A DNA stretch of 64,000 nt from a virus. Lineage: Duplodnaviria > Caudoviricetes. Every line of letters starts with the position of its first letter. The stretch's first letter is position 1. A program made the position numbers and the translations under genes. Below the pieces are notes generated by a model. That model did no database searches and was not told where the DNA came from. It worked only from the letters and a program-made list of their open reading frames with translations. Shown in pieces: positions 1 through 64,000 of the stretch. Location: IMG/VR virus record IMGVR_UViG_3300030117_007612, positions 64,001 through 128,000 of that record. The stretch is one strand, 5' to 3'.

Positions 1-3000
1 ACAGGTGCGCGCTTCAACTTAGATCCGTACGGAGATAAGACGGGCAAGCTTAGGAGAATCTTGCCTGAGCTTTTAAAATTTTATTGGTCCAAGGGTTGGG
101 TATTGAACGGTTCTTTACTCCCCGGCTTCGGCAAGAAAGACGCCGAAAAAATTGCAATTGGCTTTAATGAAAATTACACTATAAAATACATGTCTGTGTG
201 GCAATATGGATGTGAGCACGCAGCCTACACACTTAAAGAAGGACAACTATCTTCGCTTAAAAATAAGACTCCCTTTAATGATCCGACCGCCATGGCATAT
301 CTTTCTAAAGTTTTCGAAATGGAAAATGATTTAATTTCGAGAGTTCCCAAAGATTGGCTAGAGTTCCTAGAAGAATATACTTACCCAGCATTGCTTGTAA
401 GACATGCGAATCCGGGAGAATATGATCCATTTGCTCCCGGCGGCCCAATCCAACAGCAGACCATGGGCGCCATTAATGATGCGTTAGCTGGTGCCGGCGG
501 CAGTACTAACATGACCGCTGGTGACTGTATTGCTGATGATTTTGCGCAAGATTTTAAAGAAATAAAAGATTTTGTCCACGATCAGGTAATGGGCTTGGGC
601 GATGTGATTGCCTATAAATTTAGAGATAAAATATGCGGCACTGAAGATTCGGCAAGACAAGACGCTGAGGATGTTGGATGGTTTAGTGTTTATGATCCAA
701 AAACAAGAAAGAATAAAAATGTATACCTTATGGCCCAAGAACAGGCTTTTGCTCAATTGGAGGCCAATGATCAGGTCTTTGTTGAATTGTGCGCAAGGCT
801 TTTTAGTCTTCTTAATGTTAGTGGCGGCTATCAAAAGATGGACGAATTGTGGGCACAAGTATTCAGCCCGCTAAAGGAGTGCGGCCTATCAGAATTGCTA
901 TCTGACGTCATTAAGTGTCTTTTGGGCGGCTTAAGTTTAGAAGAGGCCATGGCCAAAGCAATCCTTTCTGCTTTAAACGCTATGGGCATTGAGTCCTTTG
1001 GAAAGCTTTTTGTAGGGTTGCCGCCTGATAAGCAGAGAGAAATTGAAGCGATTGTATGGAGAAGATTAGAAAGTGGAGACGTTCCCGGCTTTGAACCAGA
1101 GAGAATGCGAGCTACTCCTCCATGGGAATCTGATGTAGCAAAGGCCGGAGCTTCGCAAAGAGTGGCAACTGGGGTGGAAGATAGCCCAGTGCCGGTCGAT
1201 CGCGGCCCACCATACAGCGCGCCATCCACTAGGAGAACTCTCGGACAACAATTTGACACAGCTATAAACGACCCATATCAAGGAGTCGATCCAAACAACA
1301 TATTGCAGGTTTACATTGCTGCCTTGATAGATGTTTATGGCGACAATTTATTAGACTTGGTCGACGAGATAAACAAAATTCCGGGCGTCCCGGTTATCAC
1401 TGCCATCATCGCCACTTTGGATTGTCCTCGTCCTCCTATTTTTGATCCGGGCCTGTTCGACTGGCTTAAAGATATTCAGCTTCCATGGTGTAGAAACCAA
1501 AAAGATATTGGCTGGCCAAGAATAAATATGGCACCACCCATGTCGCTAGCTGATATTTTTAAGGCACTTCTAGAGGCCGCCAAGGAAGCGCTCTTGGAAA
1601 TGATTATGAACATCTTGACTCAAATAATCATTAAAATATGTGAGATACTTGGTGACATGATATGTAAGGCGCTAGAGGCTGTTGGTGCTTTGGCAGCTGC
1701 TTTACCGAGCTTAATCAGCGGCGAAAACTCCGTATCGAATGTACTGAGAGATGTTTTCTGTGGCCCAGACGCGTCACAAGAACAAATTGAGCAAGTTACG
1801 GCGCGATTAATAGGCACTCTTGGGGGTGGCGGCGCCGCAATGGCAGATCGTGGATTGGTAAACAACTGGACTGCCGGCGTATCTTCGATGATAACACAAA
1901 GAGAGCTAGCAGAATTGTTCACCGGCCGAGCCGATGATTCAACTATAAACATAATACATGAATTTACACAACTGGAGGTTCCAGAATTTGCTGACGCCTT
2001 AGCTTCACCCACTGACATTAGAAATCTTTTTAAGAATATTGGCGACTTATTCCCACCTGAATTTACAGGTGAGCTTTTGGACATTGTTGATGCCGATGAT
2101 TTACTTGCTGATAAGCCGATAAATCCGTCTTTATGTGCCACTCCGGAGAAGCTAGATGATTTTAAAGCCGCTCGTTGTGCGCTATTAGAAGGCCGAGCCA
2201 CCAAAGAACAGTGTGATAAACTTTATGATGACCTAAAAGATCAATTATTGGATGATCTAGAAGATATCAGCACAGTTTTCCAAAAAGGTGTGAAAGCGCA
2301 CATTGCAGATCAGTTGCCGCCACTTGTTAGCGCACCCGGCTGTCAAGATGGGCTGTTGCCTTTTGAGCCAGAAGAACATAGAGTTGCAAGAGAAAAAGTA
2401 CAAGAAAGCTTATACAAAGAAATCAAAGTTGCATACACACAAGATTTAGTCGGTGACGGACCTTGGGCATTTCAGTGGGGCGCCCTCAATCTAATACTTT
2501 CTGATGTTAATGGGGTAGCCTATACAGCCCACCAGAAAAAAGCACAAAACATGTTTAATTATGTTGACTTTATCAACGAATCCGGACCCGATCCCGGCGG
2601 ATTTCCCGAGATGCCGCCTTTGGTGGGTGAATTGATGGGCGGCCATAATGGCGCGTTCCCTGTTGATGTTGCCGGCTGGCTGCAAGATTACGTGACCTCT
2701 GGCAGCTATAGAGATCCGACAGTGCCAACTGGCATTTTTAAACCAATTGAGGGATGGCACGAATCTCAAAAAAGAAAAATAATCATAGAACCAAGCCCCA
2801 CAATCTATTCAATTTTTGGCGAAACCCAACAAGAGGTTGCATATGTGATGTTACCCGGATATAAGATGGGAGATTTAAGAGCTAAATTCAGAGACAACGC
2901 AAAAGGCATGCCAAATAAATTCAAGATCGCCGGCGTTACAGATTCAACAAAAGGTCTTGATGGAGAAAACGAGGCATATGGATATGGTTTTGACATGTGG

Positions 3001-5940: not shown

Positions 5941-5949
5941 AATTAGTGC

Positions 5950-5957
5950 CTAATTAC
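5950..5957 (+). promoter_or_regulatory. CTANTTA box (putative late promoter)
   Basis: CTAATTAC in the intergenic gap before the gp25-like gene. Confidence 0.4.
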
Positions 5958-5972
5958 AGTTAGGGTTTTATA

Positions 5973-6365: not shown

Positions 6366-6380
6366 TTAATTAATATGAAT

Positions 6381-6388: not shown

Positions 6389-6409
6389 ACTGAGAAAGGA
6401 ACATTATTA

Positions 6410-21599: not shown

Positions 21600-22661
21600 A
21601 TGGCAACGTTTTTAGATAAAAAAGAACAAGTACTAGACATTCAGCTAACATCGCATGGCAAGTATCTGCTTTCTGCCGGCAAGTTTAAGCCCGTGTTTTA
21701 TACATTTTTAGATGATAATATCATATATGATTATAATCATGCCGGCGTCGGCGAAAATCAGAAAGAGATACACAACAGAATTACGCAAAACACTCAATAT
21801 CTCCAAACTCAAACACAGTTTGATAGTCCGGAGGAACATGTAAAAGAAAAAATAGAAAAAATTAGATCTAAGGTGCCGTTATTTTTTAGTGAAGAAAACG
21901 ATATGGGCATAGAAAAGGAAATGAGCCATACAAACTTCAATAGAAAAACATATGTGTTCAACAGCACAATAGGTACAGCACCGCCAACAGGCCGTTTTGC
22001 ACCAGCATGGGAAGTTAGAATGATAAAAGGGCAAATATCCGGCTCGTCACCTTTCTTGAGTGAACCTTATGAATTAATTGATATACCTCAAATAGATATC
22101 GAAGTAACGTACAATATAAGAGAACTTTCATTACATAGCCAAGATGACATGTATGTTTCGGAAGAATTTAAAGAGTTTTATGATGAAGAATTTTACATGT
22201 ATGATATGCACAAAAGCGACACATTTAGCGACGACACCTTTCTTCAGGTCTTTGGAGAGGATCCAATTATTGATATTAAGGAATTGAATTCTTTTAGTGA
22301 GATTGAAAATTTTGAAATTGATGTTTATAGAGTCGAACAGAACTACAATAGAAAAATCGGAGGCAATGAAAAATTGGTACGACTGCATTTCGTGAAAGAC
22401 AAACAAGAAATAGTAGATGGAATACTAGTTGACGATGACGGGTACGATCCAGCAGCAGTACCAATTACGACTGATAATGTAGAATATTATTTTAATTTAC
22501 AAGTCGATTCAGATATCGATAAAAGACAATTATGCAAGGCAGTTGATAAATTGAAATCTGATAATTATTTTGTAGATATTCCAATTAATTGTGAAGATTT
22601 AGAACCTAGGCAAAGAATGGATATATATGCTTCGTCCATCGAGCCAGAGGATTGTGATTAA
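21600..22661 (+). CDS. Tail-associated protein, paralogue of the 32036/33316 N-terminal family
   Basis: FLDKKEQVLDIQLTSHGKYLLSAGKFKPVFYTFLDDNIIYD aligns with FLDNSGDIILDAVLTDLGRMRMADGDFSVNKFALGDDEVDY. Confidence 0.55.
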   Translation: MATFLDKKEQVLDIQLTSHGKYLLSAGKFKPVFYTFLDDNIIYDYNHAGVGENQKEIHNRITQNTQYLQTQTQFDSPEEHVKEKIEKIRSKVPLFFSEENDMGIEKEMSHTNFNRKTYVFNSTIGTAPPTGRFAPAWEVRMIKGQISGSSPFLSEPYELIDIPQIDIEVTYNIRELSLHSQDDMYVSEEFKEFYDEEFYMYDMHKSDTFSDDTFLQVFGEDPIIDIKELNSFSEIENFEIDVYRVEQNYNRKIGGNEKLVRLHFVKDKQEIVDGILVDDDGYDPAAVPITTDNVEYYFNLQVDSDIDKRQLCKAVDKLKSDNYFVDIPINCEDLEPRQRMDIYASSIEPEDCD

Positions 22662-25600
22662 TGAGCAAAAGTTCAGAATACACTAGCGGCAAGGAGATGT
22701 TTGGTGATTTTTTACCAAAAGTTTATATTGACAAAATAACTTTGTCTGGCAGAGAGGATCTGGGAGAGAACATGATGAAGGTTGAGGTGGAAGTGTCATT
22801 AAAAGACAGCTCCAATGCTACTGGAAACTTTTTGCTATTCGATAACCACGAACTTTGGGACCTAATCAATATAGACGTCGCAGTGACATCAGACCCAAAA
22901 GCCCAAGAGTTTATAGAAGGCCAGCGCAGCATACAAAAGCTTGCATATGCACCCGAGTGGCCACTCGGAATTATTGCGGATGACACCGGCGGGCTTGACA
23001 TGGATCCGCAATATGTGTCGCTTTTTGATGGAGAACCGGCCAATAGTTACTGGAAAGTCACTCATTCAGATCGCAGTGCGGGCGCGTGGATCCGACCAGA
23101 ATTATTTAAGGCAAACTACTCTACACAGAACCTTACAGACATTGTGCACGGCCGCTTAGGAGAGAGACCAGAAAGAGGGTTTGTTGGTGAACAAGATGCC
23201 GGCGTAGAATTACTCAAGTTGTTACCTGAAGTCGCCGAAACTCATGATAGTTCTGCTAAAGTTATCAAAACTCTCACATCAACATTTACTTTTTTTATTC
23301 ATAAGAATATGCTTACCAATTTGCAAGATGCAACTGCCCCGGTTGCCGATGATGCCATGAGTGCACTTATGGAGGTGCTCTATGGCTCCGATACCACCAG
23401 CGCCGTACCGGGCGCCCACATTTTTCCAAATGATTTGTATATATTTGCGTACGCGAGAGTAAACACAGATTCCGACTTCTGGGAAGGTGCAAGCACATCT
23501 GCCGGCGGAATAGACAACATAAACGAGATGCCAGAGCTGCAAAATGAATTTATTGGGGAAGTGGCATACGAACACATGATTGACGGTGGTGAGATCAACT
23601 TTAGAGAGTACAAATATTTTACAGAAGATGATCGTCTTTTTCAGGGCCCATTGGTATTGAATACGAATGGGGATTACGTAAAAGCTTTAAATTATGACAA
23701 CGAGAGAATTGCTAATGAAATAGCTGATAGGGTATTGTCTTTGATAGATACGGAAACCGAAAAAGAAAACGCAGCATTGATATATTATTCATACATTGTT
23801 AGCAATTTGGTTGGCTATGCTGAATACCCTGAAATGTTTTTTCAATTATATCAACAACTTAGGCTTATGTCTGATCGTCGGACTACCACATCTGCCGGCA
23901 AAATAGCAAATGCATTTTCCAATGTGATGGAACAACTCAAAGGAATATTTTTGTCGACAGAAAAAGTCTATAAAAAAATGGTTAGAAATTCTAAATATTT
24001 TGATAGGCGCGTACCCGGATCTGCATCTTCGTCTGGAATAAAATTTTGTGCCCCTTCCGAAATAGATGGCGGGTACGGCATGGGCTCGGCGGATATTTCC
24101 ACTCAGCGCAAGCTGCACTCTTGCGTATTGCCAATGTACGATCACGGACATACCGCTTTTAAGTTTGGCCCATCCCCCCACAGTAAAATATGGTTAACTT
24201 CTGACATTCCGGGAGAAAGGTTTGATCCCTCTGGTACTGACTTGAATACCGGACTTGTTACCGCCGGCGATATATCGGACCCGAGAAATCGTTTAAGCTT
24301 TGATAGAGTTAATGCCGATTTTTTGAAAAAAAGAATTAATGGCTGGTTTATGTTAAACTTGGAAAACATGATGTATAAGGCTATATATCACCCGACTGCC
24401 AAACATTTTGTGCTTACTAAGAAATTAGTGCATCATTTTGGTTTTGGTGTTATTTCAAAATACTTTTTTGTCGACCAAGTCACCCTACAAAGAGCGGCGG
24501 TAGATTATAACGATGCGTCCGAAGTTTGGGGCGTCGGCGCTGCCGGCACAGATAGTGTTTCTATGCCTGTTCTTAGTCGCACCCAAGAACACGTATTCAC
24601 ATCAACATTGACTCGTCAAGCTACTGATGATCCGGGCGATGGAACTGATATATCAAAGACTGCGACAAATCTGAGTATGCGCATAGTAAAGCCGTATTTA
24701 GAGCCTTCTATAGCTACAGGCGGTGGTGATGCAACCTTTGGTGATTCTGATATTACAACTGGTGAGGGTTATTATCCTATTGATTGGTTTGGTACCAACA
24801 ATTCCACCGAAAAATTAGGCTTACAGCGCCGGCGAGATACCTTTTCACCTTTTGAGACGGGAGCCACTGCCGATGATGATCTGTACGGCTATCCAGAGGG
24901 CCCCGGGCATTATGGCACTGGATTACATGCTCAAGTAACTCATCCGGCTTTATTAAAAAATCCCGATAAAATGGAAAAAATATTATTTTTCTATTTTTCT
25001 GAGCCTGTGATGGGAATGTTTGGTGTAGAAGATTGTTCAGCAAAAGCATCATTTACCCATAATGGCGCGCCAATAAAAAAGATTCATTTAAAATACGTGG
25101 CAGACTACAATGTAATTAATAATATTGGTGGCATGTGTTATGTTATATGGAACGAATTGAGAAGGCAGAGAAGCATAATCGAAGATTATTTGGCGTTTGC
25201 TGAAAGGGTGTGCTCTTTTGATAACCGCACTGGGAAATTTAATGAATTTTTCGGAGATCAATTTCACCAAATGTTCTATAATAACCTAGGCTATGCTTGG
25301 TGGACAAGGCCCGTAGCATATTATGTATTAGTTCAAGACTTATTGAACAACAGCTACGGCGGCAACAGCGCAGTTATGCGCGAGAAGACACTTAACATAA
25401 TCCAATCGATCGATCCAACATCTGGTACAATATATGCATTGCGTGAATTTATTGAAGACTTTAACGGTTTAGTTAATGGTTGGCATACCAATTTCCGAGG
25501 CATGCACTTGGGTGACAAGTTTGAAGAGTTAGCCGGCGTATATTCATGGCATAAGAACTTTGAACCTCGTGAAAACACGTTCTCATTCAAAAACCCCATT

Positions 25601-26848
25601 TGCGACCCATTGTTTGATTTCCCATATGGTTACGGCGCCGGCTATCATGGTGCCGGCGACTTTGGCCCTTCTACTGGTGCCGGCATGCCCCTGCCTACCG
25701 GAACATACCCAATTACAGATGCGTTTTCAACATATCATACGATTATGGAAAGCGTAGAGTACGAACAATATGCCCGGGCTATTTCACAATTTAATATGGA
25801 GACCATACGGAAATGCTCGGATGAAGGAATTGTCGACAAACAAGTGACTAGTCTCCAGCTGCTCGTAAAAAGAGCGCTCTTCTCGGCGACGTTTGAAACC
25901 CCCGGCGACGAGGTGCTGCACATACACATGACACCAATCACAACTACGGATAATAATTCGGTTAGTTCTGAAAATGTGGATCCCTATCCGCCATCCGGCA
26001 AAGGCATTCGGGCCCCCACCGCTAAACAATTTGAAATATTTGATAAATTCCTTGACGACTATTCTGACGGGTATACATCCGGCACCAACCGTACGGTCGC
26101 GTTCATCGGCGCCGGCGCCACAACTCAGACATACGATGTGCTGAGGAAAATCGAACTGGGTTTGGTCGATGAAGGAACTGCCCCCGGGGGAATGAGAAAA
26201 GGCGCGTGGGAATTATTTATGGAAGCCACATTGGCTTCTGACGGCAAGTCAGGGAATGGCACCGAAAAAGCCCTAGCCGCCGGCGTATCACGTGCAGGAG
26301 GCGGGAACTTTTACCTTCCGGAGAACACTCCCGGCAGCGAATCAGTAGTAAACAAAGCGTACGACTTTCAAGTACTTCGCGAAAGAATTAGAAAAGGTCT
26401 CCGACGCTATGTAGATCTGTATCTGCAACATTTAAAAGAATGTTCTGGCTTAACTGCAAACCAAATTAATAATCGCTATTTTGCCGGCAACTGGCCCTTT
26501 AACGCCTTGGGATATATTCAGAACGGCCCAGATTCTCAAAATCCATTTCGAGGCGCCGAAAATATGTCGAAAACCCGCGGCTGGGGCCAAATCGATCTTC
26601 CAATGCGCGAATTGATAGAAGATTTGCTTGAGGGCGTTAGAAGATTAAGGGTGATGGGCTTTTGGCCATATTTTGACATAAATGATATCCGTAGCTACAT
26701 GGATTTGGGTGCAGAAGGAGAAGGACTCGGCATCGACATCGCCCTAGGCGCCGCCGACGATGAGGGTGGATATTTCTCCCCACCGGGCGACATGATGATT
26801 TCACCCTATTTGGTTCCCGTGGAGTTCGACTTTGGATCTGGCGATTAA
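22661..26848 (+). CDS. Large hypothetical virion protein (1395 aa)
   Basis: Long ORF coupled by TAATG overlap to the previous gene; tail module context only. Confidence 0.6.
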   Translation: MSKSSEYTSGKEMFGDFLPKVYIDKITLSGREDLGENMMKVEVEVSLKDSSNATGNFLLFDNHELWDLINIDVAVTSDPKAQEFIEGQRSIQKLAYAPEWPLGIIADDTGGLDMDPQYVSLFDGEPANSYWKVTHSDRSAGAWIRPELFKANYSTQNLTDIVHGRLGERPERGFVGEQDAGVELLKLLPEVAETHDSSAKVIKTLTSTFTFFIHKNMLTNLQDATAPVADDAMSALMEVLYGSDTTSAVPGAHIFPNDLYIFAYARVNTDSDFWEGASTSAGGIDNINEMPELQNEFIGEVAYEHMIDGGEINFREYKYFTEDDRLFQGPLVLNTNGDYVKALNYDNERIANEIADRVLSLIDTETEKENAALIYYSYIVSNLVGYAEYPEMFFQLYQQLRLMSDRRTTTSAGKIANAFSNVMEQLKGIFLSTEKVYKKMVRNSKYFDRRVPGSASSSGIKFCAPSEIDGGYGMGSADISTQRKLHSCVLPMYDHGHTAFKFGPSPHSKIWLTSDIPGERFDPSGTDLNTGLVTAGDISDPRNRLSFDRVNADFLKKRINGWFMLNLENMMYKAIYHPTAKHFVLTKKLVHHFGFGVISKYFFVDQVTLQRAAVDYNDASEVWGVGAAGTDSVSMPVLSRTQEHVFTSTLTRQATDDPGDGTDISKTATNLSMRIVKPYLEPSIATGGGDATFGDSDITTGEGYYPIDWFGTNNSTEKLGLQRRRDTFSPFETGATADDDLYGYPEGPGHYGTGLHAQVTHPALLKNPDKMEKILFFYFSEPVMGMFGVEDCSAKASFTHNGAPIKKIHLKYVADYNVINNIGGMCYVIWNELRRQRSIIEDYLAFAERVCSFDNRTGKFNEFFGDQFHQMFYNNLGYAWWTRPVAYYVLVQDLLNNSYGGNSAVMREKTLNIIQSIDPTSGTIYALREFIEDFNGLVNGWHTNFRGMHLGDKFEELAGVYSWHKNFEPRENTFSFKNPICDPLFDFPYGYGAGYHGAGDFGPSTGAGMPLPTGTYPITDAFSTYHTIMESVEYEQYARAISQFNMETIRKCSDEGIVDKQVTSLQLLVKRALFSATFETPGDEVLHIHMTPITTTDNNSVSSENVDPYPPSGKGIRAPTAKQFEIFDKFLDDYSDGYTSGTNRTVAFIGAGATTQTYDVLRKIELGLVDEGTAPGGMRKGAWELFMEATLASDGKSGNGTEKALAAGVSRAGGGNFYLPENTPGSESVVNKAYDFQVLRERIRKGLRRYVDLYLQHLKECSGLTANQINNRYFAGNWPFNALGYIQNGPDSQNPFRGAENMSKTRGWGQIDLPMRELIEDLLEGVRRLRVMGFWPYFDINDIRSYMDLGAEGEGLGIDIALGAADDEGGYFSPPGDMMISPYLVPVEFDFGSGD

Positions 26849-28792: not shown

Positions 28793-31700
28793 ATGTCTGA
28801 TATACTTTGGGCCCCGACAACTATAGTCGCTCCAGCCGACAGTGCCGATCCGGCTAGTCGACATGACCTTACCGAAGCAGAGAGAGAATTACGATTCTTT
28901 ACAAAAGCAGATCGGCGCCATGGCTTATCGCCTAGGTATTCTGATCATGCTCTGGCCGGCAAGCAATGCACATACGCCGATTCACAAATATATCAGACTC
29001 CAGAGGCAGATAATTTTAGACGTGAATTGAGAAATTTATGGAAGATAAACGAACACAATAGGTTATCAATAGAACCGCTTCCAAAATTGGATGAACTCCT
29101 AGGAGTACCGGGGGCCCCTCCTCGCTATGCTCACACCCCGTATAATTATCGACCGTCAAGTAAGGTTTCTAAAATCATATTTGGCGTTAGCAACGCAATA
29201 GTAACAAATAACACATTTTACAATAAAAGGTCGATGCCAATAAGAGTAGTGGGAGACCCACAATTTTTCCAAACAGATGAACAATGGAGAACTTATGTGG
29301 CCGGCGGAACATACAATGATGTCGAACATAAAGGTATCATACCCAGCACTCAAGTGGCGGATCACCTACACTCATCAATTGTGCCAATGACCGAAGAACA
29401 GCTAGAAAAATATAATTTAGGTGACACAAAGATAAAATATTTTGCTGATTTTAACATGTCATATAATCTTTATAATCCAAAATTTGAATCTAAGAGCAAG
29501 CAAATTTTGGAAATTGCATTGCCAAATTACTATGCTCTTTGGGCTTCTTCAAAAGTTGATCTGACAAAAACAACAAGAGCAGATCTTATTGGAAAAAGGC
29601 TGGATTATGTTATAGATGAAGAGACTGGTGAGGAGGTTTTGGCGCCCGGTCCAGCCGTACCGGTTGGCTCAGATAAGGACGGATTATATCCCTATGCGCT
29701 GTACCGCGATGCTACGTGGTATAGGCATGCAATTTTAAATAATCATATTTCTCCCGGCCGCGTTGCCGACATGTTTAGGGAAAAGAAGACCGTAGTTCCG
29801 GCAGAGACAATATACAGAACAACAAGACAAGAACAACAAATGGCCAAATATTTGGAGGGATACTCAAATAAAATACAACAAGCGGTTACAGATAATCCTG
29901 AAATATACAATTACATGAAAAATATCTTTTTCGACATTGATGCCGCAGACGAATATTTGAAGGAGCGAACTTCCGCGCAAAAAGTTGCAAAATTATTCCC
30001 AGCGAATATAAATCTCAGAATGAGAACTGAAACACCGGGCTTATTTATCGACATGCTGGAAAAAAGCAATTTAGACGGTAAGTTTATGTTGGGGCTTCAT
30101 CACGGATTTGCACAACAGTCCGACATTTATAAAACTAGAAGAAGAGGTTTTGTTAAGACAGTAGAAGAGCCGATTGAAAAAGTTGACGAAGAGGGGTTTT
30201 CATACAATCTTTTTGTGCATGAAAGTGAAGCAGTGGATTTAAATTGTATGAATTTGTTTAGCTGGTGGGACGCGGGATATAGAAATCCCGGCTCGTTTCA
30301 AAATATTAATTTTGTTGGAAGGTCAACTGAAAGCGTAAAACTCGCAACAGATGCGCAAAATCGATATCGATTTGAAAACACAACAAAGCATTTAAAATTT
30401 GCATCGCAATTGAGAAAGTTTTTTGAAGATAAGTTTGATGCGACCAATAGAAATTATGTTGATGTGCTAAAAGCCACTCCAAGCTATGTTGAAACCGTAG
30501 CATATAGAATTGTTAAACGCGGCGGCGCCGCCGAAGGCCCCAACAAGCTTACACCAATAATTCAAAATTTTTGGATTATGAATTCAAAAAGAATGGATGT
30601 GATGAGCTTTTTTGATACGCAAGTAAAATATGGAGCAAATTATAGGTACGATGTCTACGCATACAAAGTAGTTATTGGCACAAAATATAAATATAAAAAG
30701 TTAAAAATTAGCAAAAGAATATCCGGCGAAGTTAGCGCCGGCCGTGTTGATATCGACGGCGAACCGATAGAGGAGACATGTTTGTCATTCTATGATGCAG
30801 AGACGGGAGAAGACGCCGCACCACTGGCAAAGTTTGACCTAATATCCCCAGCGGATACTTCGTATACAGAAACAGTAAAGTTATTCGATTATGAAGTGCC
30901 AAGAGAACTCGGATACGAATCCGGCCGAACAGAGGGTGTGACCATGGCCACGCTAAGTGAATGGGGCGGGGGTGAAGGAAGGTTGGTACCCGATCATATA
31001 CAAGTATCACCAGACCCCTTTCTTGCTGATTTTGAAATTGAATATGAGCCATCTGCTGAGATTATTGAAGTTCCTTTGTTCGCCTATAATGGCACAGTGC
31101 TTGAAAGCCCGACGTCAAAGCCGGGAATTGAGGTTTTCAAAGTTGAAAACAGAGAAGACACGGCAGGATTTAGGATTAGATTTGATGATGTCCCCACATC
31201 AGAAATGCCGCGAATAGTCACAGCAGGCGACGAAGAATACAGAAGGCGATACCTGCTATCAAATGGTTTTCCAACTAATGCAGAAATTAGATATGACTCA
31301 GTTAGTCCTATTGTGGGCTTAGAGGTTTATAGAACTGAAAGAACCCCATACTTATGGTCGGATTTTAATGGCGAAATGCACAATTTCATTCGCACCCAGC
31401 CCGGAACATCAAATTATGTTTTTATGGAAAAAATAAAAACCAACATAAAGTATTATTACATGTTTAGGTCTGTCGATAGCCACGACACACCCGGGCAATG
31501 TTCTGAGATTTATGAAGTGGAATTAGTCAAAAAAGGAGACATTACATATCCAGTTGTCAAGGTTCATGAAATTCCAACAAGAGATGAACTATCAAAACGC
31601 ATGCAGCAGTTATCGAAACCAATTCGAAGACTTATTAGGATATCTCCCTCCATCTCACAAAGAGTTTTAAACCATAAAAAATTAGCAGAATATGGCACAG

Positions 31701-38827: not shown

Positions 38828-41800
38828 GTGAAATTTGCACATATCAGTGATACTCACATTAAAAATCTAAAGTACCACTACGAATATCGAGTCGTTTTTG
38901 AGCAGCTTTATGAAAAGTTGCGAGAAGAAAAGGTTGACTACATTATTCATTGTGGCGATGTTGCGCATACGAAAACTCAGATATCACCTGAGTATGTTGA
39001 GATGTGTTCATTGTTTTTTGAGAATCTTGCTAATATTGCGCCAACTTACGCAATTTTGGGCAACCACGACGGCAACTTGAAGAACAGTAGTCGTCAAGAT
39101 GCTTTGACGCCGATATTTAACGCGCTTAATCATCCGAACCTTTTCTTGCTAAAAGATTCAGGCGAAACCATTTTGGATGATAAATTTTGCCTTAATGTGT
39201 TGTCTGTTTTTGATCGTGACAATTGGATCAAGCCGTCCGATTCTGACAAGATAAATATTGCACTTTATCATGGTTCTATATCTAATTGCAAGACTGATAT
39301 AAACTGGACGATGACCAATGGCGAGGATGAAATTGGCATCTTTGATGGCTTCGACTTTGCAATGTTGGGAGATATTCATCGGCGCCAATTCTTAGATGAA
39401 GCCGGCCGAGTATGGTATGCAGGTTCCACAGTACAACAGAACCATGGCGAAACAAATGACAAGGGAATATTGATTTGGAATATTGAATCTAAGGACGATT
39501 GGGACATCGACCCTGTTGTTTTCAAGAATCCCAAACCCTTTGTAACGTTGGAGTTAACACAGAAAGGCAGAATGCCTAAAGGTGCAGATGTTCCGGAAGG
39601 CGCGCGCCTTAGACTGGTAAGCAATAACAACTTGCCGTTAAGTGTTATGAAGCGCGCCATTGACATCGCGAAGCATCGTTTTAAACCAGAAAGTGTTACG
39701 TTTCTTAATCGTGCCGCCGGCGAGCGCGGTGATGTGAGTGAAATCACAGACACACTTAAGACTGAGAATCTTCGTGATATAAATATTCAAGAAGAATTGA
39801 TGGATGAGTATCTAAAGGAGTACCAAGTTGACTCTTCCACAATGGAAAAGATTTACGAATTGAATCGAAAATATAAAAAGCTGGTAGAAAATAGCGATGA
39901 TATATCGAGAAACGTGAATTGGAGACTGACAAATTTTGAATTTGATAACTTGTTTAATTACGGAGAAGGCAACAATGTAAGCTTTGAGGATCTCAATGGG
40001 ATTACAGGGATCTTCGGCAAGAACTATTCTGGCAAGAGTAGCATTATTGATGCTGTACTTTGGACACTCTTTAATACAACCTCGAAAAACGAACGTAAGA
40101 ACCTCAATGTCATTAATCAGAACAAAGAGTTCTGCCGCGGCAAACTGACAATCGATGTAGGCCACCTAAGATATACAGTCGAAAGAACAGCTGAAAAATA
40201 TATTAAGCGCCTAAAGGGTGAGGAAACTCTAGAAGCCAAGACCGATTTAAATTTTGAGGTGCATGATCAGGCGACTGGGGAAACTGTATCTTTAAATGGC
40301 CTGAGTCGCAACAACACTGATGCCAACATACGCCGTCATTTTGGTGAGTGCGAAGATTTTCTAATCTCTTCAATGGCCTCACAGCACGGTGCTCTATCAT
40401 TCATTGACGAAGGCTCAACACGCCGTAAAGAAATAATTGCAAAGTTTCTTGATTTAGAGATATTTGAAAAGAAATTTAAATTAGCTAAAGAGGATTCGAC
40501 TGATCTTAAGGGCGCCCTCCGTCGCTTAGAGAGCAGAAATTACGACGAAGAGATAGTCGAGGCCTCCGCCACCTTAGAAGAGAAGAGGGTGGAACTGAAG
40601 CGCCACGAAACTCAATGCGAAATTTTAAAAACAAAAATCGACGATATTACAGAAACGTGTGAATCACTAAAGAATAGTATTGAGGCGATTCCAGAAGAAG
40701 TTATAAATGTAATAGACACAAAGCGGGAAATCAAAAAGAGAAACATGCAGATCGCCTCCTTAGAATTGGAAGGCGCAGAGAACAAAAACATATTAATATC
40801 CAAAAAGGCTACATCTGAAAAGATCATAGAATACCTTGCGAAAATTGATATTGATGCACTGAATCGACAAAACAGCATAATTACAAACCTATCAACACAA
40901 AGACAAGAACAGGAAAACATTTTAAATGATCTGCTCTCCCAAATAGAACAGATTGAGAAAAAGTCAAAATTGCTAGATGGGATTCCTTGCGGCTCTGATT
41001 ATCCTCAGTGTAAGTTTATTAGAGACGCTAATGTCGCTGTTGCAAACTTGCCACACGTGCAACAAGAAAGAGAAAACTCACAAACTCAGTTTAAAATTTT
41101 AGATAAAAAACTATCAAGCATGCGACCGAAAACAGTCGAAGAGCAGCTTGAAAAATACAATCTAGTTTTGCAAAAACAAAACACCGTTACTCATGAGATT
41201 GCGGATTTAAATTTATCAATCGAAAAAGGTCAAGCTTCAATTGAAAGATTAACCTATGAATTGAAAGAGTTTGAGCAGAAAAAACAAAAATATGAAGAAA
41301 ATAAAGAAGTCATCGAAAACTTTGAAGAGTTCTCATCAGAATTAGCAACTTGTCATGCCAACTTAGAGAAGGCAGAGAAACAATACAACAAATGTGAAAA
41401 TCAAAAACTTGAACTTTACAAAGAAATAGGATCATCCGAAGAACGCGTACAAAGCATAAAAGAACAAAAACAGGAATACTTATCTTTACGGGAGGAGTAT
41501 TCAGCCTATGATCTTTATATGCGTTGCATGCATACATCTGGCATTGCTTACGATATTATTAAACGCAAACTTCCAGTTATCAACCAAGAGATCGCGAAAG
41601 TCCTAGCAAACATCGTTGACTTTGAAATATTCTTTGAAGATTCTGGAAAGAAATTTGATATTTTTATCAAGCACCCTCGACACGAACCGAGACCGATTGA
41701 AATGGCATCCGGCGCCGAAAAAACCATGGGGGCCATGGCAATTCGTTTGGCGCTCTTGAGTGTTTCGTCGTTGCCCAAGAGTGATTTATTTATTCTTGAT

Positions 41801-41977
41801 GAACCCGGCACAGCATTAGATGAAGAAAATATGGAAGGTTTTATTCGTATTTTGGAACTAATTAAAGTGTATTTCAAGAACGTCTTGTTGATCTCGCACC
41901 TTGACTCTCTCAAGGACTGTGTTGATATGCAAATTGTGATTGAAAAGAAATCAGGATATGCAAAAGTAAATCAATAG
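38828..41977 (+). CDS. Fused SbcD/Mre11 nuclease - SbcC/Rad50 ATPase (T4 gp47+gp46 equivalent)
   Basis: Phosphoesterase motifs DTH, GD, GNHD, HG, GDIH, YAGS; Walker A GKNYSGKS; coiled coil with CGSDYPQC; signature ASGAEK; Walker B FILDEP; H-loop ISH. Confidence 0.93.
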   Translation: MKFAHISDTHIKNLKYHYEYRVVFEQLYEKLREEKVDYIIHCGDVAHTKTQISPEYVEMCSLFFENLANIAPTYAILGNHDGNLKNSSRQDALTPIFNALNHPNLFLLKDSGETILDDKFCLNVLSVFDRDNWIKPSDSDKINIALYHGSISNCKTDINWTMTNGEDEIGIFDGFDFAMLGDIHRRQFLDEAGRVWYAGSTVQQNHGETNDKGILIWNIESKDDWDIDPVVFKNPKPFVTLELTQKGRMPKGADVPEGARLRLVSNNNLPLSVMKRAIDIAKHRFKPESVTFLNRAAGERGDVSEITDTLKTENLRDINIQEELMDEYLKEYQVDSSTMEKIYELNRKYKKLVENSDDISRNVNWRLTNFEFDNLFNYGEGNNVSFEDLNGITGIFGKNYSGKSSIIDAVLWTLFNTTSKNERKNLNVINQNKEFCRGKLTIDVGHLRYTVERTAEKYIKRLKGEETLEAKTDLNFEVHDQATGETVSLNGLSRNNTDANIRRHFGECEDFLISSMASQHGALSFIDEGSTRRKEIIAKFLDLEIFEKKFKLAKEDSTDLKGALRRLESRNYDEEIVEASATLEEKRVELKRHETQCEILKTKIDDITETCESLKNSIEAIPEEVINVIDTKREIKKRNMQIASLELEGAENKNILISKKATSEKIIEYLAKIDIDALNRQNSIITNLSTQRQEQENILNDLLSQIEQIEKKSKLLDGIPCGSDYPQCKFIRDANVAVANLPHVQQERENSQTQFKILDKKLSSMRPKTVEEQLEKYNLVLQKQNTVTHEIADLNLSIEKGQASIERLTYELKEFEQKKQKYEENKEVIENFEEFSSELATCHANLEKAEKQYNKCENQKLELYKEIGSSEERVQSIKEQKQEYLSLREEYSAYDLYMRCMHTSGIAYDIIKRKLPVINQEIAKVLANIVDFEIFFEDSGKKFDIFIKHPRHEPRPIEMASGAEKTMGAMAIRLALLSVSSLPKSDLFILDEPGTALDEENMEGFIRILELIKVYFKNVLLISHLDSLKDCVDMQIVIEKKSGYAKVNQ

Positions 41978-56361: not shown

Positions 56362-56372
56362 TTTTATTTTAA

Positions 56373-56413: not shown

Positions 56414-58699
56414 ATGGGAATAGGATGGGCATATATCGATTGTGATCCCGAGATTGTAACGGGATCGACCGGGCCAACTGGCTCAGTTATGTTTAAAGAT
56501 GGCCATAGATCTATTCGTGGTCAAGAAGAGCTTATGTGGATCCGCCCGGCCGCAGCTATCTCTGAGGGATTTACAATTGCATCGGGCAGTGCGTACACAA
56601 GCACACTCGACGTCGGCGCCACCTTCCACCCGCCATTCCTCCAAGTATCAGGAAACATAAGAGTTAGCGGCACAATTTTTGCAAACAGTTTCGATGTTAT
56701 AACAACAACTTTAACTGAGATACATCAGTCTGGATCAACCAGCTTTGGTCAGGGTGTTAACCGCGATAAACACAGCTTTTCAGGTTCCTTACAGGTAACA
56801 GGCGCCAGCACGCTGAATGCAATAAATTCATATGTTTTAGATAGATTTGGAATTGGCGAAAAAGAACCGAAATCTACACCTCACAGCGCAGGGTCTTCGA
56901 ATGATGCGAAGGCAGAAATATCAGTTGCTGATGGCGAGGCTTTAACGGCACTTGTAATCGATGCGAATGATGTCGATGAAGTAGCAATGCACATCGAAGC
57001 AGCACAAACAACCGCTAATGTTTTAGAAATTACAGCAGATGCAGTGACAACAGCAAATGTAATTGATGTTTCAGCAGACGCTCTAACTTCAGGCGCCGCG
57101 ATGAAAATTCAAGACAACTCAGCAAACAACACTTCCAGAGATTTAGTGCTTATTCATCAACAACACGCTAGCGCTACCTCAGCTACTGCATTGAAAGTTA
57201 TATCTGCAGGCGCCCAGACTGGAATGCTCTTGGACAAGAACTATTCGAGCGTTAATGCATCGACCGTCACTGGCTTCACTATTGACTTAGATAAAACTGG
57301 CACTTCGACTACTGCGAACACGATCTATGGGGCTACCATCGACGTGGATAACACAACAGCAACAGCCGGCGTCAATAACATGACTGGTATTCAGGTGACC
57401 CCGACCTTGACACATGCTGCAAACGCCGGCACGCCAACTGTAAAAGGCGCAGTCATTACTGCAACCGGCGGTGGCAACGGCACATCAGCCGCCACCGGCA
57501 TGGAGTTGACTGCTACTGGCGCCGATACCAACAAGGGTCTCATAATCAACTGTGCTGATGGAGGTCAGGATTTGCTAATTGTTAGCTCTGCCGACACCGC
57601 GGACTATTTTGCAATTGAAGTAACAGCCGCCGGCGCAACCACCCTTAAAACGTATGAGGATGGCTCCGATCACGGCGCAGATCTTACAATGGATATTGAT
57701 GGCGCAATTAAGATTGACGGCGACGGGGTTGAGATAGAAAATGATTCAGACTCGGGAGCAACGGCCCTTCTTATTGATAATGATGATACAGACGCGATTG
57801 CCCTTAGTATCGCCGCTGAGAATATTGATGCGAATGTTGTTGATATTGCAGCAGATGCGGTTACAACTGCTAAGGCGCTTAATATTTCAGCGGATGCGCT
57901 CACGACTGGTACTGCGTTTTATGTCGAAAGCGAATCAACGAACAACAGCACTAGAAATGTAGCAGCAGTTGTGCAAAACGCCGGCGCTGCCATTAACGCC
58001 ACTGCGCTACTTGTACAATCTGATAGTAACGGCGGCGTTGCTGGCATTAAAATTGATAGAAATGCAAACGGTACTGCAGCTGTTGATGCTGTAACCGGTC
58101 TTCAAATCGATCTAGATCAGACTGGAGAGATCACAAGCGCCACCGGTGTTGTGGTTGGAATCCAAACAGATATCGAAACCAACGTCGCCGGCGACGGCAC
58201 GTTAAATTCCTATGGTCACAGAATTGTGATGACCGGCGATGCTGATGGAACACATACAAACACTGGCCTTTCAATTAATTTAGGTCAGGCCGACATCAAC
58301 ACTCATATTGAGTTACTTTCTTCCGCCGATACCGGCGATAAATGCACGATTTCAACAGGTCTCGCCGGCGCAACAACAATTTTAACGGTTGATGATGATG
58401 GTGCGGACGCCCATCTTACAATAAATCCCGATGGCAATTTACTTCTTAATGCTGCTGGTGACATTATAGTCGATCCAACTGGCAATGATATTCTTCCTCT
58501 TAACGATAATGACATTAGCTTGGGTTCTGCTTCGAATCGATGGGCGCACATTTATACAACACTTATTACAACTGGTGACCTTCGTTTAAATAATGATAGA
58601 GGCGATTGGTTGATTGTCGAGGAAGCAGACTATTTGAGTATAAGGAATCAAAAAACAGGAAAGCTGTACAAATTCGTATTAGAGGAGATTAAAGAGTAA
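56414..58699 (+). CDS. Fibre-like structural protein
   Basis: A/T/G/D-rich beta repeats; C-terminal RWAHIYT..ITTGDLRLNN.RGDW...TGKLYKFVLEEI resembles the C-terminal domain of T4-like cyanophage fibres. Confidence 0.7.
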   Translation: MGIGWAYIDCDPEIVTGSTGPTGSVMFKDGHRSIRGQEELMWIRPAAAISEGFTIASGSAYTSTLDVGATFHPPFLQVSGNIRVSGTIFANSFDVITTTLTEIHQSGSTSFGQGVNRDKHSFSGSLQVTGASTLNAINSYVLDRFGIGEKEPKSTPHSAGSSNDAKAEISVADGEALTALVIDANDVDEVAMHIEAAQTTANVLEITADAVTTANVIDVSADALTSGAAMKIQDNSANNTSRDLVLIHQQHASATSATALKVISAGAQTGMLLDKNYSSVNASTVTGFTIDLDKTGTSTTANTIYGATIDVDNTTATAGVNNMTGIQVTPTLTHAANAGTPTVKGAVITATGGGNGTSAATGMELTATGADTNKGLIINCADGGQDLLIVSSADTADYFAIEVTAAGATTLKTYEDGSDHGADLTMDIDGAIKIDGDGVEIENDSDSGATALLIDNDDTDAIALSIAAENIDANVVDIAADAVTTAKALNISADALTTGTAFYVESESTNNSTRNVAAVVQNAGAAINATALLVQSDSNGGVAGIKIDRNANGTAAVDAVTGLQIDLDQTGEITSATGVVVGIQTDIETNVAGDGTLNSYGHRIVMTGDADGTHTNTGLSINLGQADINTHIELLSSADTGDKCTISTGLAGATTILTVDDDGADAHLTINPDGNLLLNAAGDIIVDPTGNDILPLNDNDISLGSASNRWAHIYTTLITTGDLRLNNDRGDWLIVEEADYLSIRNQKTGKLYKFVLEEIKE

Positions 58700-61600
58700 T
58701 GGCCAAAATAGTAATAACCTCAGCAGGTATATCCGGTTCAGCAGGATCGGTAGCCATTACAGGCTCATTTGTTGTTACCGGATCCGAAGGCGAAATTACA
58801 GTTTCCGGAAGCGGAACCGAGCTTAGTGGCGCCCATGGATCCTCGACCACCACATCGGGCTCATCTACATTCTACGACGCCGCCGGCAGCAGCACGTCAA
58901 CCTCTGCGACTGGCTCAGTATCTACCGGCTCAGCAGGCTCCGCAACGCACGGCTCTGGTTCCTCAACATACACCGATGCTGATGGCACACACTCAACTTC
59001 TGCAACTGGTTCATACACTACGGGTTCCGGCGGATCAACATCGACAACATCAGGCTCTACATCCCACACAAGTGCTGATGGTAGCACCACTTCGACATCT
59101 GCGACTGGTTCTTATATTAGTGGCTCCGGAGGCGGAGCCGGAACTGGCTCTGGCGGCTCAGCAACCCACAGTTCGGGTTCATCAATTTACACAAGCGCTG
59201 ACGGTAGCACACACTCAACTTCTGCAACTGGCTCATTAACCACAGGCTCAGGAGGTTCCACCGAAACAACATCAGGATCTACATCGTATACAGACGCTGG
59301 TGGAAGCACCACTACTGTTTCTGCAACTGGTTCATATACCACAGGTTCTGGAGGTTCCACCGAAACAACAACGGGATCATCTACATACACAGGCGCTGAT
59401 GGTGGCACAGCCATAGTCTCTTCAGTTGGATACGTAGCTAGTGGTTCCGGTGGAGAGTCATCTACAACATCTGGCTCAACCAGCTACACAGACGCTGGTG
59501 GAAGCAGTACTTCGACATCTGCGACCGGCTCATCTATGACTGGTTCGGGCGGATCTGCAACCCATGGATCGGGTTCATCCACATATACAGACGCCGGCGG
59601 ATGTACTGGGTCGATGTCCGCAACTGGTTCATACACTACGGGTTCCGGCGGATCAACATCGACAACATCAGGCTCGACCACACACACAGACGCTGGTGGA
59701 AGCAGTACTTCGACATCTGCGACCGGCTCATCTATGACTGGTTCGGGCGGATCTGCAACCCATGGATCGGGTTCATCCACATATACAGACGCCGGCGGAA
59801 GTACCACTTCGACATCTGCGACTGGCTCTTATATGAGCGGGTCGACCCCGGGAACCACTACCACAACGCCGGGCGGGACTACATACGAAGACACAGACAG
59901 CACAACTATGCACTCAACCAGTGGTTCGCACTATAGTGGCTCAACGCCGGAAAGCGGCTCTGCCGGCAGCACAACGATTACAGATGGCACAGTTGAGGTA
60001 ACTGGATCCGTCACAATTTCTGGCTCAAGCCCCGCCTTAACAATTATGGCCGGCGAACTAATAGTTAGTGGCTCATCGATACTTGGCTCAACCATCGACC
60101 ACACAACCACTATAGGCAGCCACCTTACAGCATCCTATGGATTGGTTGCGCCAACACACGGAATTAGCGGAGCATATGTTACAGCCTATGATGGTCGTTT
60201 CCCGGGTCACGTGTCATCATCTCTTTATAAAGGCTCGATGGTCTCTGCTAGCTTGTTAGTGACAGGTGGAGAAGTTAAAGCACACCGCGGTACATTCGGC
60301 TTGATGGTTACTGAGTTTCTTACGATGTCAAAGGGCGCCCTTGTTGAGGATGATGACAAAGTCCACTTTGGCACAGATCAAGAATCACACATCAGGTACG
60401 ATGAGGCCGGCCAAGATTTCCTAACAATTTCAGGCTCAGATGCAGGTGGCCTTGTTCTAAGCGGTTCTAGCTTGGTAATCGACACTGACACCGTGGAAAG
60501 CGGTTCCCGCGCCGGCGGCGGAAGCTACTTGGCTATGACAACAACTGGTAAAATTGTGTTGTCGACTCCAGATGGCGGCGGCGGCGGTTCCGCTAGAAGC
60601 GTTTCGGGTGATGACGACGATGGCGTTATAACTTGGAAAACATCTGATAACACTTTTACTGTTGAGGGCAATCTTACTTTTGACGGTAACACACTTACCG
60701 TCGGCGGTCTGGGCGTTGTAACCGGTAGTCAGTTAATGGCGTATGGCATAACCGGATCGCTAGCGACAATTCAAGAGATTACTGGTGGCTGGGCTGATAT
60801 GCATAAGTTTGCCGGCGACAAGGTCGAAGTTGGCACTCACGTTTCATCTTCGCTTCTGTATGGTACAACATTGTCTGCGTCAACTCTTGTAAGTGGCGGT
60901 TTGCATATGGGCCATACCGGCAAATTTGATATTCTGTCAGCATCGACGGTGTATGCTCACGCCTTCTCCCCATCGACCGTATCAGCATCTACAGAAATAA
61001 CCGGCGGCGCCGTCTCGGCATTTGGAATTACTGGAACACTCGGAACATTCAGTGGCGTCGTCAGTGCATCTTCTTACGAAGGTTTTGCTGTGCGAACCAC
61101 ACACGGAGAACACGCTGGTACAGTCTCTGCATCAGTATTCATAGGATCGAATGTATCAGCCTCAACAGAAATCACCGGTGGTTGGCACAGAGGACACACT
61201 GGCAAATTTGATATTCTGTCAGCATCGACGATACATGCTCATGTCTTCTCTCCATCGACTATCTCCGCCTCGCTATATTTAACTGGTGGTCATGTTTATG
61301 CATACGGTATAACCGGCTCAAAAGCGACAATTACAAGCATCAGTGCTACGGAAGTCACATCATCTGTATTGTTGGGATATTCGCATACTGGCGACGAATT
61401 AATTGCACACAGCCATGTATCAGCGGCTCTATTCTTAACCGGTGGGCACGTCTATGCTTACGGCGTTACCGCTTCATTGGGAACATTCAGCGGCGTCGTC
61501 AGTGCGTCTTCTTATGAGGGTTTTGCCGTACGAACTACTCATGGCGAACATGCTGGCACAGTTTCTGCATCAGTATTCATAGGATCGAATGTATCAGCTT

Positions 61601-63054: not shown

Positions 63055-63119
63055 TAATTGCTAAACAAATGCTCATCCCCATGCGTCGAATTAAAAACGT
63101 CTTTTATGTCAATTAGTTA

Positions 63120-63127
63120 CTATTTAT
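63120..63127 (+). promoter_or_regulatory. CTANTTA box (putative late promoter)
   Basis: CTATTTAT before the scaffold gene. Confidence 0.5.
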
Positions 63128-63161
63128 TTTTGAAATATAATTAAATTTTGGAGAATTTTAT

Positions 63162-64000
63162 ATGTCATCGATGCTCGACCAAGCAATTATAGACGCCACT
63201 GCCCTAAAAGAGGCGGCTCTTAAAAACGCAGAAAACGCAATTGTTGAAAAATATTCCAGCGAGGTTAAGCAAACGCTTGACAAACTGCTTGAACAAGACG
63301 CACCTCTTGCAATGGATCCTTTGGGAATGGATGCGGGCCCGGAGCCCATGGACGATCCTGCACCAGACACTCCGCTTGCTGCACTTGATGGAGACAAAGC
63401 ATGTCCATGCCCCGATGAAGATGAACAAATTGAATTGGATATTGATCTTTCGGCGCTTTCCAAGGCTGCAGCAGACCTAACAACATCCGACATGGGATCT
63501 GCAGAGGACCAAGAAGCCGTTTTACAACAAGTTGCCGAGTCCGAAGATTTTGAAATTTCAGACGATGTTATCGTCGAATTATTATCCGAGGATGAGTCCG
63601 AAGAACAAGAGATTGATGATTCAGAAGTTATTGAAGAAGAAGAGGAAGAATTGCTCGATGAAGATGAGGAATTAGAATACTCTTTTGAAGATGAATTAGT
63701 AGATAAGATTTATGAAAAATTGACGGTTGATTTAAAACCGGCATTATCTGGCTGGGCTGGACGCCCGGCTGAGCACATTGAAGCTGAAATGGAAAGAGAG
63801 TTAGCACGCCGACGCGACGATGAAGTCGAAGAAGACGTAAAGGCTCTCAAAAAGGCTGTAGAAGAATTGATGGAAGAGAACAACTCTCTTAAAGATCAAA
63901 ATGAAAAGTTTTCATCCGCAGTGGTTGCGCTGAAAGATAAACTCGACGAAGTTAATCTTTCAAATGCAAGATTGCTGTATACGAACCGAATACTCAGTAG
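63162..64000 (+). CDS. Prohead scaffold/core protein (T4 gp22-like), 3'-truncated
   Basis: MSSMLDQAIIDATALKEAALKNAENAIVEKYSSEVK..., very acidic middle and coiled coil ending LDEVNLSNARLLYTNRILS; GGAG SD; open to the window end, so not in the track. Confidence 0.75.
   Translation, partial: MSSMLDQAIIDATALKEAALKNAENAIVEKYSSEVKQTLDKLLEQDAPLAMDPLGMDAGPEPMDDPAPDTPLAALDGDKACPCPDEDEQIELDIDLSALSKAAADLTTSDMGSAEDQEAVLQQVAESEDFEISDDVIVELLSEDESEEQEIDDSEVIEEEEEELLDEDEELEYSFEDELVDKIYEKLTVDLKPALSGWAGRPAEHIEAEMERELARRRDDEVEEDVKALKKAVEELMEENNSLKDQNEKFSSAVVALKDKLDEVNLSNARLLYTNRILS

Follow-up and report, generated by a model that had tools for sequence, protein, structure and literature searches.

Why should a palindrome be written over and over into the genome of a phage, when phages usually avoid palindromes, since palindromes are restriction sites? 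This question is raised by the hexamer GCCGGC in a 64,000-base stretch of viral DNA (hereafter the window), which comprises bases 64001-128000 of a 203,368-base IMG/VR virus record (IMGVR_UViG_3300030117_007612; genome G000) that CheckV rates as 100% complete. A sequence-only reading of the window had noticed the repeated hexamer and had proposed that it was either the mark of a methylation/repair system, like the highly iterated palindromes (HIPs) of cyanobacteria, or a genome-wide protein-binding site. The origin of such iterated palindromes has been an open question for ~30 years. Here we find that GCCGGC is not a lone motif but the highest point of an excess that extends to perfect, spacer-less, G+C-rich palindromes in general, and that the signature belongs to the phage lineage and not to a common cellular background. 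These findings point to a process that acts on the DNA and is inherent in the phage, rather than to a function of particular sites.

GCCGGC in the window and along the genome

The window contains 86 GCCGGC sites, spread across nearly all of its genes. The sequence-only reading had counted about 80-85 by eye, and every copy that it had located (493, 2671, 8781, 25637/25652/25679, 33610/33652, 57365/57425 and 60511) is a real site; its estimate of ~41% G+C was somewhat low, the measured value being 42.6%. Base composition predicts 6.0 sites in the window, and dinucleotide shuffles gave 9.4 +/- 3.2 (maximum 18). Two further null models were used. In N1, synonymous codons are permuted inside each gene, which leaves the protein, its dipeptides and the codon usage of the gene unchanged; in N2, every dinucleotide is preserved as well. 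The expectation for the window rose to 20.9 +/- 4.6 under N1 and 30.8 +/- 4.6 under N2. The earlier observation of an excess is thus confirmed. In the whole genome, 182 sites were observed against 17.6 expected from base composition, 56.7 +/- 6.8 under N1 (z 18) and 77 +/- 7.5 under N2 (z 14-16), and GCCGGC ranked first among the 2080 strand-collapsed hexamers under both models. A 3.2-fold excess thus remains under a codon- and dipeptide-preserving shuffle, the check that had been suggested together with the original claim. The other palindromes that had been described as frequent are all enriched genome-wide, namely GGCGCC (121 observed vs 50 expected), CGGCCG (68 vs 33) and CCCGGG (40 vs 18), with 50, 28 and 23 copies in the window, respectively. 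Non-coding DNA holds 3 GCCGGC sites in ~12 kb, which is too little sequence to judge.

The enrichment extends along the genome from 1 to 180 kb, where the observed/expected ratio of GCCGGC was 1.7-7 in each 10-kb bin. The stretch at 36-48 kb of the window, singled out earlier as sparse, indeed holds 6 sites; it offers fewer Ala-Gly slots and has a lower third-position G+C, although its observed/expected ratio of 2.9-3.6x (genome bins from 100001 and 110001) is the same as elsewhere.

As the sequence-only reading had stated, most copies encode Ala-Gly as GCC-GGC (143 of the 182 sites, 79%), and this codon pair accounts for 37% of the 385 Ala-Gly pairs of the genome, against ~11% predicted by codon usage. 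However, the excess is present in every codon phase (143 vs 45, 12 vs 1.8 in phase 1, and 23 vs 6.4), even though a copy in phase 1 needs the rare Arg codon CGG. Because GCCGGC is raised in all reading phases, the effect lies at the DNA level, and the excess in phases 1 and 2 rules out a translational codon-pair preference. Among the Ala-Gly pairs with S-ending codons (S, G or C), the palindromic one alone is up, and GCCGGG, GCGGGC and GCGGGG are down. Pairs in which GCT, GCA or GCG precedes GGC are all about halved, and neither Ala-Ala nor Gly-Gly shows anything comparable to the GCC-GGC effect. The non-palindromic twins GGCGGC/GCCGCC reach only 1.36x in the genome. When shuffling was confined to blocks of 100, 40 and 20 codons, the 182 GCCGGC sites were compared with expectations of 71, 88 and 107 (z 11.7 at 20 codons), and the twins gave z ~2 only. 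These block shuffles and the twins rule out local G+C patches as the cause, and the gene-wise and dinucleotide-preserving synonymous shuffles rule out codon usage and dipeptide content. Around the sites, the only flanking signal is the usual Y...R codon pattern, and nearly every surrounding 12-mer is unique; a longer motif or duplicated repeats are ruled out by this diversity. Taken together, the enrichment of GCCGGC is DNA-level, frame-independent and palindrome-specific.

The sequence-only reading had left room for RCCGGY or CCGG as the true unit. Both are ruled out, since in the genome ACCGGC/GCCGGT is at its expectation (82 vs 82), ACCGGT reaches 1.28x and CCGG outside GCCGGC and CCSGG gives 319 vs 315; the enriched unit is GCCGGC alone. 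Words that deviate from it at an inner position are mildly depleted (GCTGGC/GCCAGC at 0.70-0.78, z -2.1 to -3.8; GCAGGC/GCCTGC at 0.74-0.83). Those deviating at an outer position lie at 0.8-1.0, except CCCGGC, which is raised 2.25x through the avoidance of CCWGG described below. With transition neighbours at 0.78 and transversion neighbours at 0.74, the depletion is not specific to transitions, the T:G derivatives.

A statistical law of perfect, spacer-less palindromes

GCCGGC and GGCGCC are only part of a wider excess. Against codon shuffles of the whole genome, perfect palindromes without a spacer numbered 1308 vs 936 +/- 27 for arms of at least 4 bases, 406 vs 242 for at least 5 and 115 vs 64 for at least 6, which corresponds to observed/expected ratios of about 1.40, 1.65-1.68 and 1.79-1.87. 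After removal of those centred on GCCGGC or GGCGCC, the arm-4 palindromes still stood at 1180 vs 908. Maximal arms of 4-7 bases gave z 4-9, and the excess was present for all three phases of the palindrome centre and in each 30-kb region within 1-180 kb (1.36-1.58x). When the same arms were separated by a spacer of 1-12 bases, the ratio was only 0.97-1.32x. RNA or single-strand DNA hairpins as a cause are ruled out by this lack of enrichment among spaced arms.

Words with one mismatch occurred at ~1.0 overall, and those with the mismatch at the inner two positions were depleted (-202 and -126, vs +374 for perfect palindromes, at arm 4). N2 gave -211 and -110, and the inner-mismatch depletion was also seen in G002, a relative described below. 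The inner quasi-palindrome losses roughly match the gain of perfect palindromes. Pairing stability was the other determinant: palindromic 8-mers climbed from 1.12 to 6.46 times expectation with rising nearest-neighbour duplex stability, whereas non-palindromic 8-mers of equal stability rose only from 1.01 to 2.05. Grouped by their pattern of S and W (A or T), palindromic hexamers were enriched when both outer bases of each arm were S (2.27x for SSSSSS and 1.55x for SSWWSS), against 1.48x and 0.97x for non-palindromic ones of equal pattern. Even 10-base palindromes whose arms consist of A and T alone were still at 1.33x. These data show a statistical law of self-complementarity times stability, which applies to perfect palindromes only, at spacer 0 only and in every reading phase.

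The phage family, its avoided sites and site turnover

G000, a marine T4 relative, encodes a T4-type portal and large terminase. Its coding share is 94%, and 205 of its 222 open reading frames (ORFs) lie on the + strand, as does every gene of the window. One window ORF of 1049 amino acids (aa; 38828-41977, +) joins a calcineurin-like phosphoesterase (Mre11-like) to an SMC/Rad50-like ATPase, so that the counterparts of T4 gp47 and gp46 form a single polypeptide. The closest cultured relatives, Microcystis phage Mel-JY01 and Flavobacterium phage immuto, are remote (portal identity 38-39%), and when 10 kb of window sequence was compared by megablast with 50,697 phage records, no match was obtained. 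A scan of viral contigs found a related portal encoded by at least 596 marine phage contigs, with portal identity within the family down to 64%. Four of these relatives were compared with G000 in particular: G001, with 97-99% DNA identity across 99 kb; G002, with ~75% nucleotide identity and saturated synonymous sites; and the complete genomes G003 (204 kb, terminal repeats) and G004 (196 kb).

GCCGGC is enriched 2.9x in G002, 2.2x in G003 and 2.65x in G004, whose avoided-site sets differ. Among hexamers, it ranks first in G002 and G004 and third by z-score in G003, behind two overlapping words; GGCGCC is at ~2x in all three. Across 58 family loci (756 kb), GCCGGC reached 2.31x and GGCGCC 2.07x, against 1.14x for GGCGGC. 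Family members resemble one another in their profile over the 64 palindromic hexamers (Spearman correlation 0.50-0.65), but this profile does not correlate with that of Mel-JY01 (0.07). Examined with the same scripts, the outgroups T4, Syn9, immuto and Mel-JY01 showed palindromes at 0.81-0.92x, and neither GCCGGC nor GGCGCC was in excess there. In the bacterial bins in which related phage contigs are found, the density is ~0.03 GCCGGC per kb, vs ~0.4-0.7 per kb in the phage contigs themselves, and in two bins of 1.5-1.8 Mb a lone phage contig carries 10 of the 56 and 7 of the 29 GCCGGC sites. It is because the signature is the same across differing avoided sites, and because the bins and the outgroups are without it, that we regard it as intrinsic to the phage. 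The signature is also a practical tool, as it tells phage contigs from bacterial bins that wrongly hold them. Four related phage contigs (L118-L121) were found in public metagenome-assembled genomes labelled Flavobacteriaceae, Acidiferrobacteraceae, Legionellales and Methanobacteriota, and this placement in four phyla is most likely mis-binning.

The same family purges other sites. CCWGG is nearly gone from G000, with 1 site in 203 kb vs ~230 expected from base composition and ~245 from codon shuffles; among 209 Pro-Gly pairs, CCT-GGN occurs 0 times and CCA-GGN once. Such an absence is typical of restriction avoidance. It differs among relatives, with 0 CCWGG sites in G003 and 155 in G004. The rise of CCSGG (285 vs 171) is explained by CCWGG avoidance. 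That this avoidance might fully explain GCCGGC as well had been named beforehand as a possible refutation, and it is rejected, as G004 with its 155 CCWGG sites still has 2.65x GCCGGC. Further sites are avoided in single lineages: G003 is without CGATCG, CACGTG, GACGTC, CCGCGG, CGCGCG and CGTACG, G004 avoids GTAC-containing words, CTCCTC and CGTCTC, and G002 avoids CTCCTC. These lineage-specific zeros, as in G003 and G004, overlie the common palindrome profile, and the sets can be used as fingerprints of the restriction systems met. In a few CCGG-avoiding lineages (L019 and L027), GCCGGC itself is lost. Thus a large and abundant marine family does both, purging CCWGG, CTCGAG and GAGCTC and enriching most other G+C-rich palindromes, and two forces that are usually confounded, avoidance and enrichment, are separated here.

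CTCGAG and GAGCTC are absent from G000 and from G001-G004. In the 58 family loci, they number 17 vs 91 expected and 3 vs 106 expected, respectively, and CAGCTC/GAGCTG and CAGCTG are strongly depleted too. Because this loss is seen in lineages that otherwise differ in their avoided sites, it may reflect a family-encoded nuclease or a restriction system common to all hosts.

A search of the full 203-kb genome for a C5 methyltransferase (PF00145), an N4/N6 beta-class methyltransferase (PF01555) or Vsr (PF03852), the enzymes of the first and last kind having been proposed as a check of the methylation idea, found no match. No member of the dCMP-hydroxymethylase/thymidylate-synthase family was found in the phage, ThyX and other modification routes not having been searched. 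The sole methylase-like signal was a sub-threshold one to a D12-class adenine DNA methyltransferase (E 3.5e-4, 17 bits) in a 261-aa frame at genome 179489-179677 (L114).

Individual sites come and go. In the comparison of G000 with G001 (99,247 aligned bases, 1,808 mismatches, 1.8%), 84 GCCGGC sites were common, 7 private to G000 and 11 to G001, which amounts to 9.7% turnover per site. For reference, turnover was 0-24% for 14 unenriched comparison hexamers, and the neutral expectation for a hexamer is 10%; GCCGGC turns over at ~0.7 of the rate of the comparison hexamers, with a wide error. At orthologous Ala-Gly pairs in G002, G003 and G004, the GCCGGC state was not predictive (odds ratios 1.1-1.7, p >= 0.49). 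Within the set of Ala-Gly slots, the sites lie at random (coefficient of variation of spacing 1.39 vs 1.22 +/- 0.11) and not regularly, and between-gene heterogeneity in GCCGGC use is only mild. The absence of positional conservation and of periodicity and the neutral-like turnover speak against protein-binding sites that are individually functional. This evidence says that the sites are in a steady state with neutral-like turnover and do not function one by one. Between G000 and G001 we also noted, at genome ~185718, a symmetric double substitution GGGTACCC/GGATATCC (TGGGTACCCA vs TGGATATCCA) by which a 10-base palindrome stays perfect; both changes are synonymous in one of three frames, and a templated change would take this form, although this is a single case. 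Selected examples from the window are collected in Table 1.

Table 1 Clustered GCCGGC sites and long perfect palindromes in the window
Feature	Window position	Remark
Three GCCGGC in 48 bases (25637, 25652, 25679)	25637..25684	in the 1395-aa ORF 22661-26848, where GCCGGC writes 12 of 14 Ala-Gly pairs
12-base perfect palindrome GGCGCCGGCGCC	26108..26119	GCCGGC nested between two GGCGCC
14-base perfect palindrome CGTCGCCGGCGACG	58183..58196	GCCGGC at centre
14-base perfect palindrome CGGCGGCGCCGCCG	30520..30533	GGCGCC at centre; genome centre 94526, arm 7
16-base perfect palindrome CCGAGTGGCCACTCGG	22953..22968	without GCCGGC/GGCGCC core; example of the general excess

Possible causes and comparison with known systems

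Any explanation has to meet one rule: the palindromes are perfect only, have no spacer and scale with duplex stability, and their sites are not conserved. From the statistical law, the family distribution and the lack of site conservation, all of which are observed, we infer a molecular mechanism. A base-pairing-dependent process fits best, because of the self-complementarity, the spacer of 0, the stability scaling, the presence in all phases, the steady state and the restriction to one family. We tentatively favour a genome-wide DNA-level bias, intrinsic to the phage family, that would perfect near-palindromes by templated mutation. Near-palindromes would be turned into perfect spacer-less ones, and more efficiently so when their self-pairing is more stable. 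This could happen by a strand switch across a replication or recombination fork: the 3' end of the growing strand would pair with the complementary arm of the opposite strand, be extended there by a few bases and then go back to its own template. Such a switch would be the intermolecular version of Ripley-type quasi-palindrome correction; as that version requires no loop, it would account for the restriction to spacer 0. GCCGGC might come out on top as an all-G+C self-complementary hexamer that fits the common dipeptide Ala-Gly in common codons and is without restriction pressure in this lineage.

Several points weigh against templated correction. No mutational event was directly observed between G000 and G001, and two-base clusters of differences fell in palindromes of arm >=4 (in either strain) in 12 of 123 cases vs ~9.8 expected (7 vs 4.3 for arm >=5), a slight surplus that is no more than suggestive. 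T4, in which templated mutation was discovered, has palindromes at 0.88x, so that a family-specific cause is needed. A classical intramolecular switch would enrich spacer repeats too, and those are not enriched. The last 23 kb of the genome (180001-203368) hold 2 GCCGGC vs ~11 at the genome rate, with palindromes at 0.86x. With a G+C of 43-52%, 4 GGCGCC and a palindrome ratio like that of ordinary phages, this region appears to be under a different regime or of different origin; a purely replication-linked bias should reach it too, unless it is recently foreign. Moreover, weak selection on palindrome density would leave the same steady state.

Such selection would act on the genome-wide density of G+C-rich self-complementary words, candidates for its basis being a phage DNA-binding, condensing, packaging or partition protein that loosely prefers palindromes, or a physical property of such words, and no single site would matter. 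The signature is kept across deep divergence (GCCGGC at 2.3x with portal identity to 64%), the excess is confined to perfect palindromes, and the turnover at ~0.7 of the comparison hexamers is compatible with 2Ns ~1. The one exempt 23-kb region also agrees with this idea, as a function could apply to part of the genome. We nevertheless consider weak selection rather unlikely, since dozens of palindromes are enriched by pairing stability with no single consensus, positional conservation and regular spacing are lacking, and no candidate protein was identified. It is still less likely that the phage is subject to the true HIP mechanism (Elhai 2015), in which a cytosine methyltransferase acting on GCCGGC/GGCGCC and methyl-directed or very-short-patch repair converting near-sites, both host-encoded, would create the palindromes. 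GCCGGC and GGCGCC are, in a striking match, the exact end points predicted by the Elhai G-meC repair model for rCCGGy and GrCGyC methylases (PMC4390886). Both are top palindromes here, and the transition neighbours GCTGGC/GCCAGC are mildly down. However, the transversion neighbour GCAGGC/GCCTGC is equally depleted (0.74), other RCCGGY members are not enriched, and no methylase explains why A+T-rich 10-base palindromes, those with arms free of G and C, are up as well. Moreover, PF00145, PF01555 and Vsr genes are lacking in the phage, relatives with differing avoided sites, and hence different restriction-modification environments, carry the same signature, and the bins that hold related phage contigs are without it. 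The methylation/repair signature suggested by the sequence-only reading is therefore borne out in part: the signal is DNA-level, frame-independent and palindrome-specific and survives both the synonymous shuffles and the control for CCWGG avoidance, but the phage encodes neither such a methyltransferase nor Vsr, and the motif is not a lone one.

A by-product of coding or composition, that is, of codon-pair preference, local G+C patches, CCWGG avoidance or recent protein-repeat duplication, might be suspected from the large share of GCC-GGC Ala-Gly sites, GCC and GGC being common codons. All-G+C words are indeed somewhat up in general (1.48x for the non-palindromic hexamers), and CCSGG does rise through CCWGG avoidance. 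Yet the excess occurs in three phases, including the one that requires the rare CGG, and persists under gene-wise, dinucleotide-preserving and 20-codon block shuffles, whereas the non-palindromic twins reach 1.1-1.4x only. In addition, G004 has both CCWGG and the GCCGGC excess, the diverse flanks without a longer motif argue against duplicated repeats as the source, and the same method found nothing in the four outgroup phages. Coding and compositional by-products are thus essentially excluded.

What is new here is the law of spacer 0, perfection and stability, the family-intrinsic signature that is independent of host background, the conservation tests and the exclusion of alternatives. In addition, the phage system is small and evolves fast, and hundreds of its relatives have been sequenced, not all of which carry the signature; causes can be tested here by gene-content comparison and population sequencing. 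If templated perfecting of palindromes is at work, it might extend further: in the marine T4-like family, and perhaps in other large phages with iterated G+C-only palindromes, spacer-less palindromes may be written according to pairing stability by an intrinsic replication- or recombination-linked process that overrides avoidance, and this law could be the missing core of HIPs, with methylases only choosing the survivors. In this general form, the proposal is speculative and we hold it with some doubt.

HIP1 (GCGATCGC) and the 'alternate HIPs' GGCGCC, rCCGGy/GCCGGC and GCsGC are the highly iterated palindromes of cyanobacteria (Elhai 2015, PMC4390886; Xu et al. 2018, PMC5861425), and HIP1 sites are conserved between genomes beyond chance and quasi-periodic (Xu et al. 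2018, PMC5861425). Like HIPs, the phage signature consists of a short G+C-rich palindrome far above expectation in every reading phase, GCCGGC/GGCGCC being named in Elhai's model, and in both cases the abundance may result incidentally from a process at the DNA level and not from site function. Unlike HIPs, it is carried by a lytic-type phage family rather than by a cell, the phage encodes no cognate cytosine methyltransferase, and many palindromes follow a stability law in place of one dominant word. The enrichment is 2-3x over codon-preserving expectation (10x over base composition), against the 15-300x reported for HIP1, and no positional conservation or periodicity was found here. Of the features by which HIPs are recognized, the gross over-representation in all phases is therefore present, whereas a cognate methylase and conservation or periodicity are not. 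The signature resembles HIP sequences and may share their cause, although this does not demonstrate a HIP.

In E. coli, very-short-patch repair by Vsr together with Dcm raises CCWGG and lowers its T:G derivatives. The resemblance is that of a repair bias by which a palindromic methylase site becomes enriched. The phage signature differs in that the phage lacks Vsr and a C5 methylase, in that the depletion of one-off neighbours is not transition-specific and in that CCWGG is absent and not enriched.

Template switching between the arms of inverted repeats was first found in phage T4 (Ripley 1982) and is the usual explanation of an excess of short perfect inverted repeats, which increases with arm length (PMC5941160). 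Of four footprints of such switching, we found two, a perfect excess that grows with arm length and the depletion of quasi-palindromes, and no enrichment of spacer repeats. In contrast to the published surveys, which include spacer repeats (PMC5941160), the excess here is at spacer 0 only. It also differs from template-switch correction in its strong dependence on G+C and pairing stability and in lying inside the genes of a phage family, while T4 itself is in deficit and no individual templated event was caught. Nevertheless, the phage signature shares with template-switch correction (PMC5941160) the preference for perfect over imperfect repeats, the growth with arm length and the independence of reading frame, the correction having initially been reported for T4-type replication.

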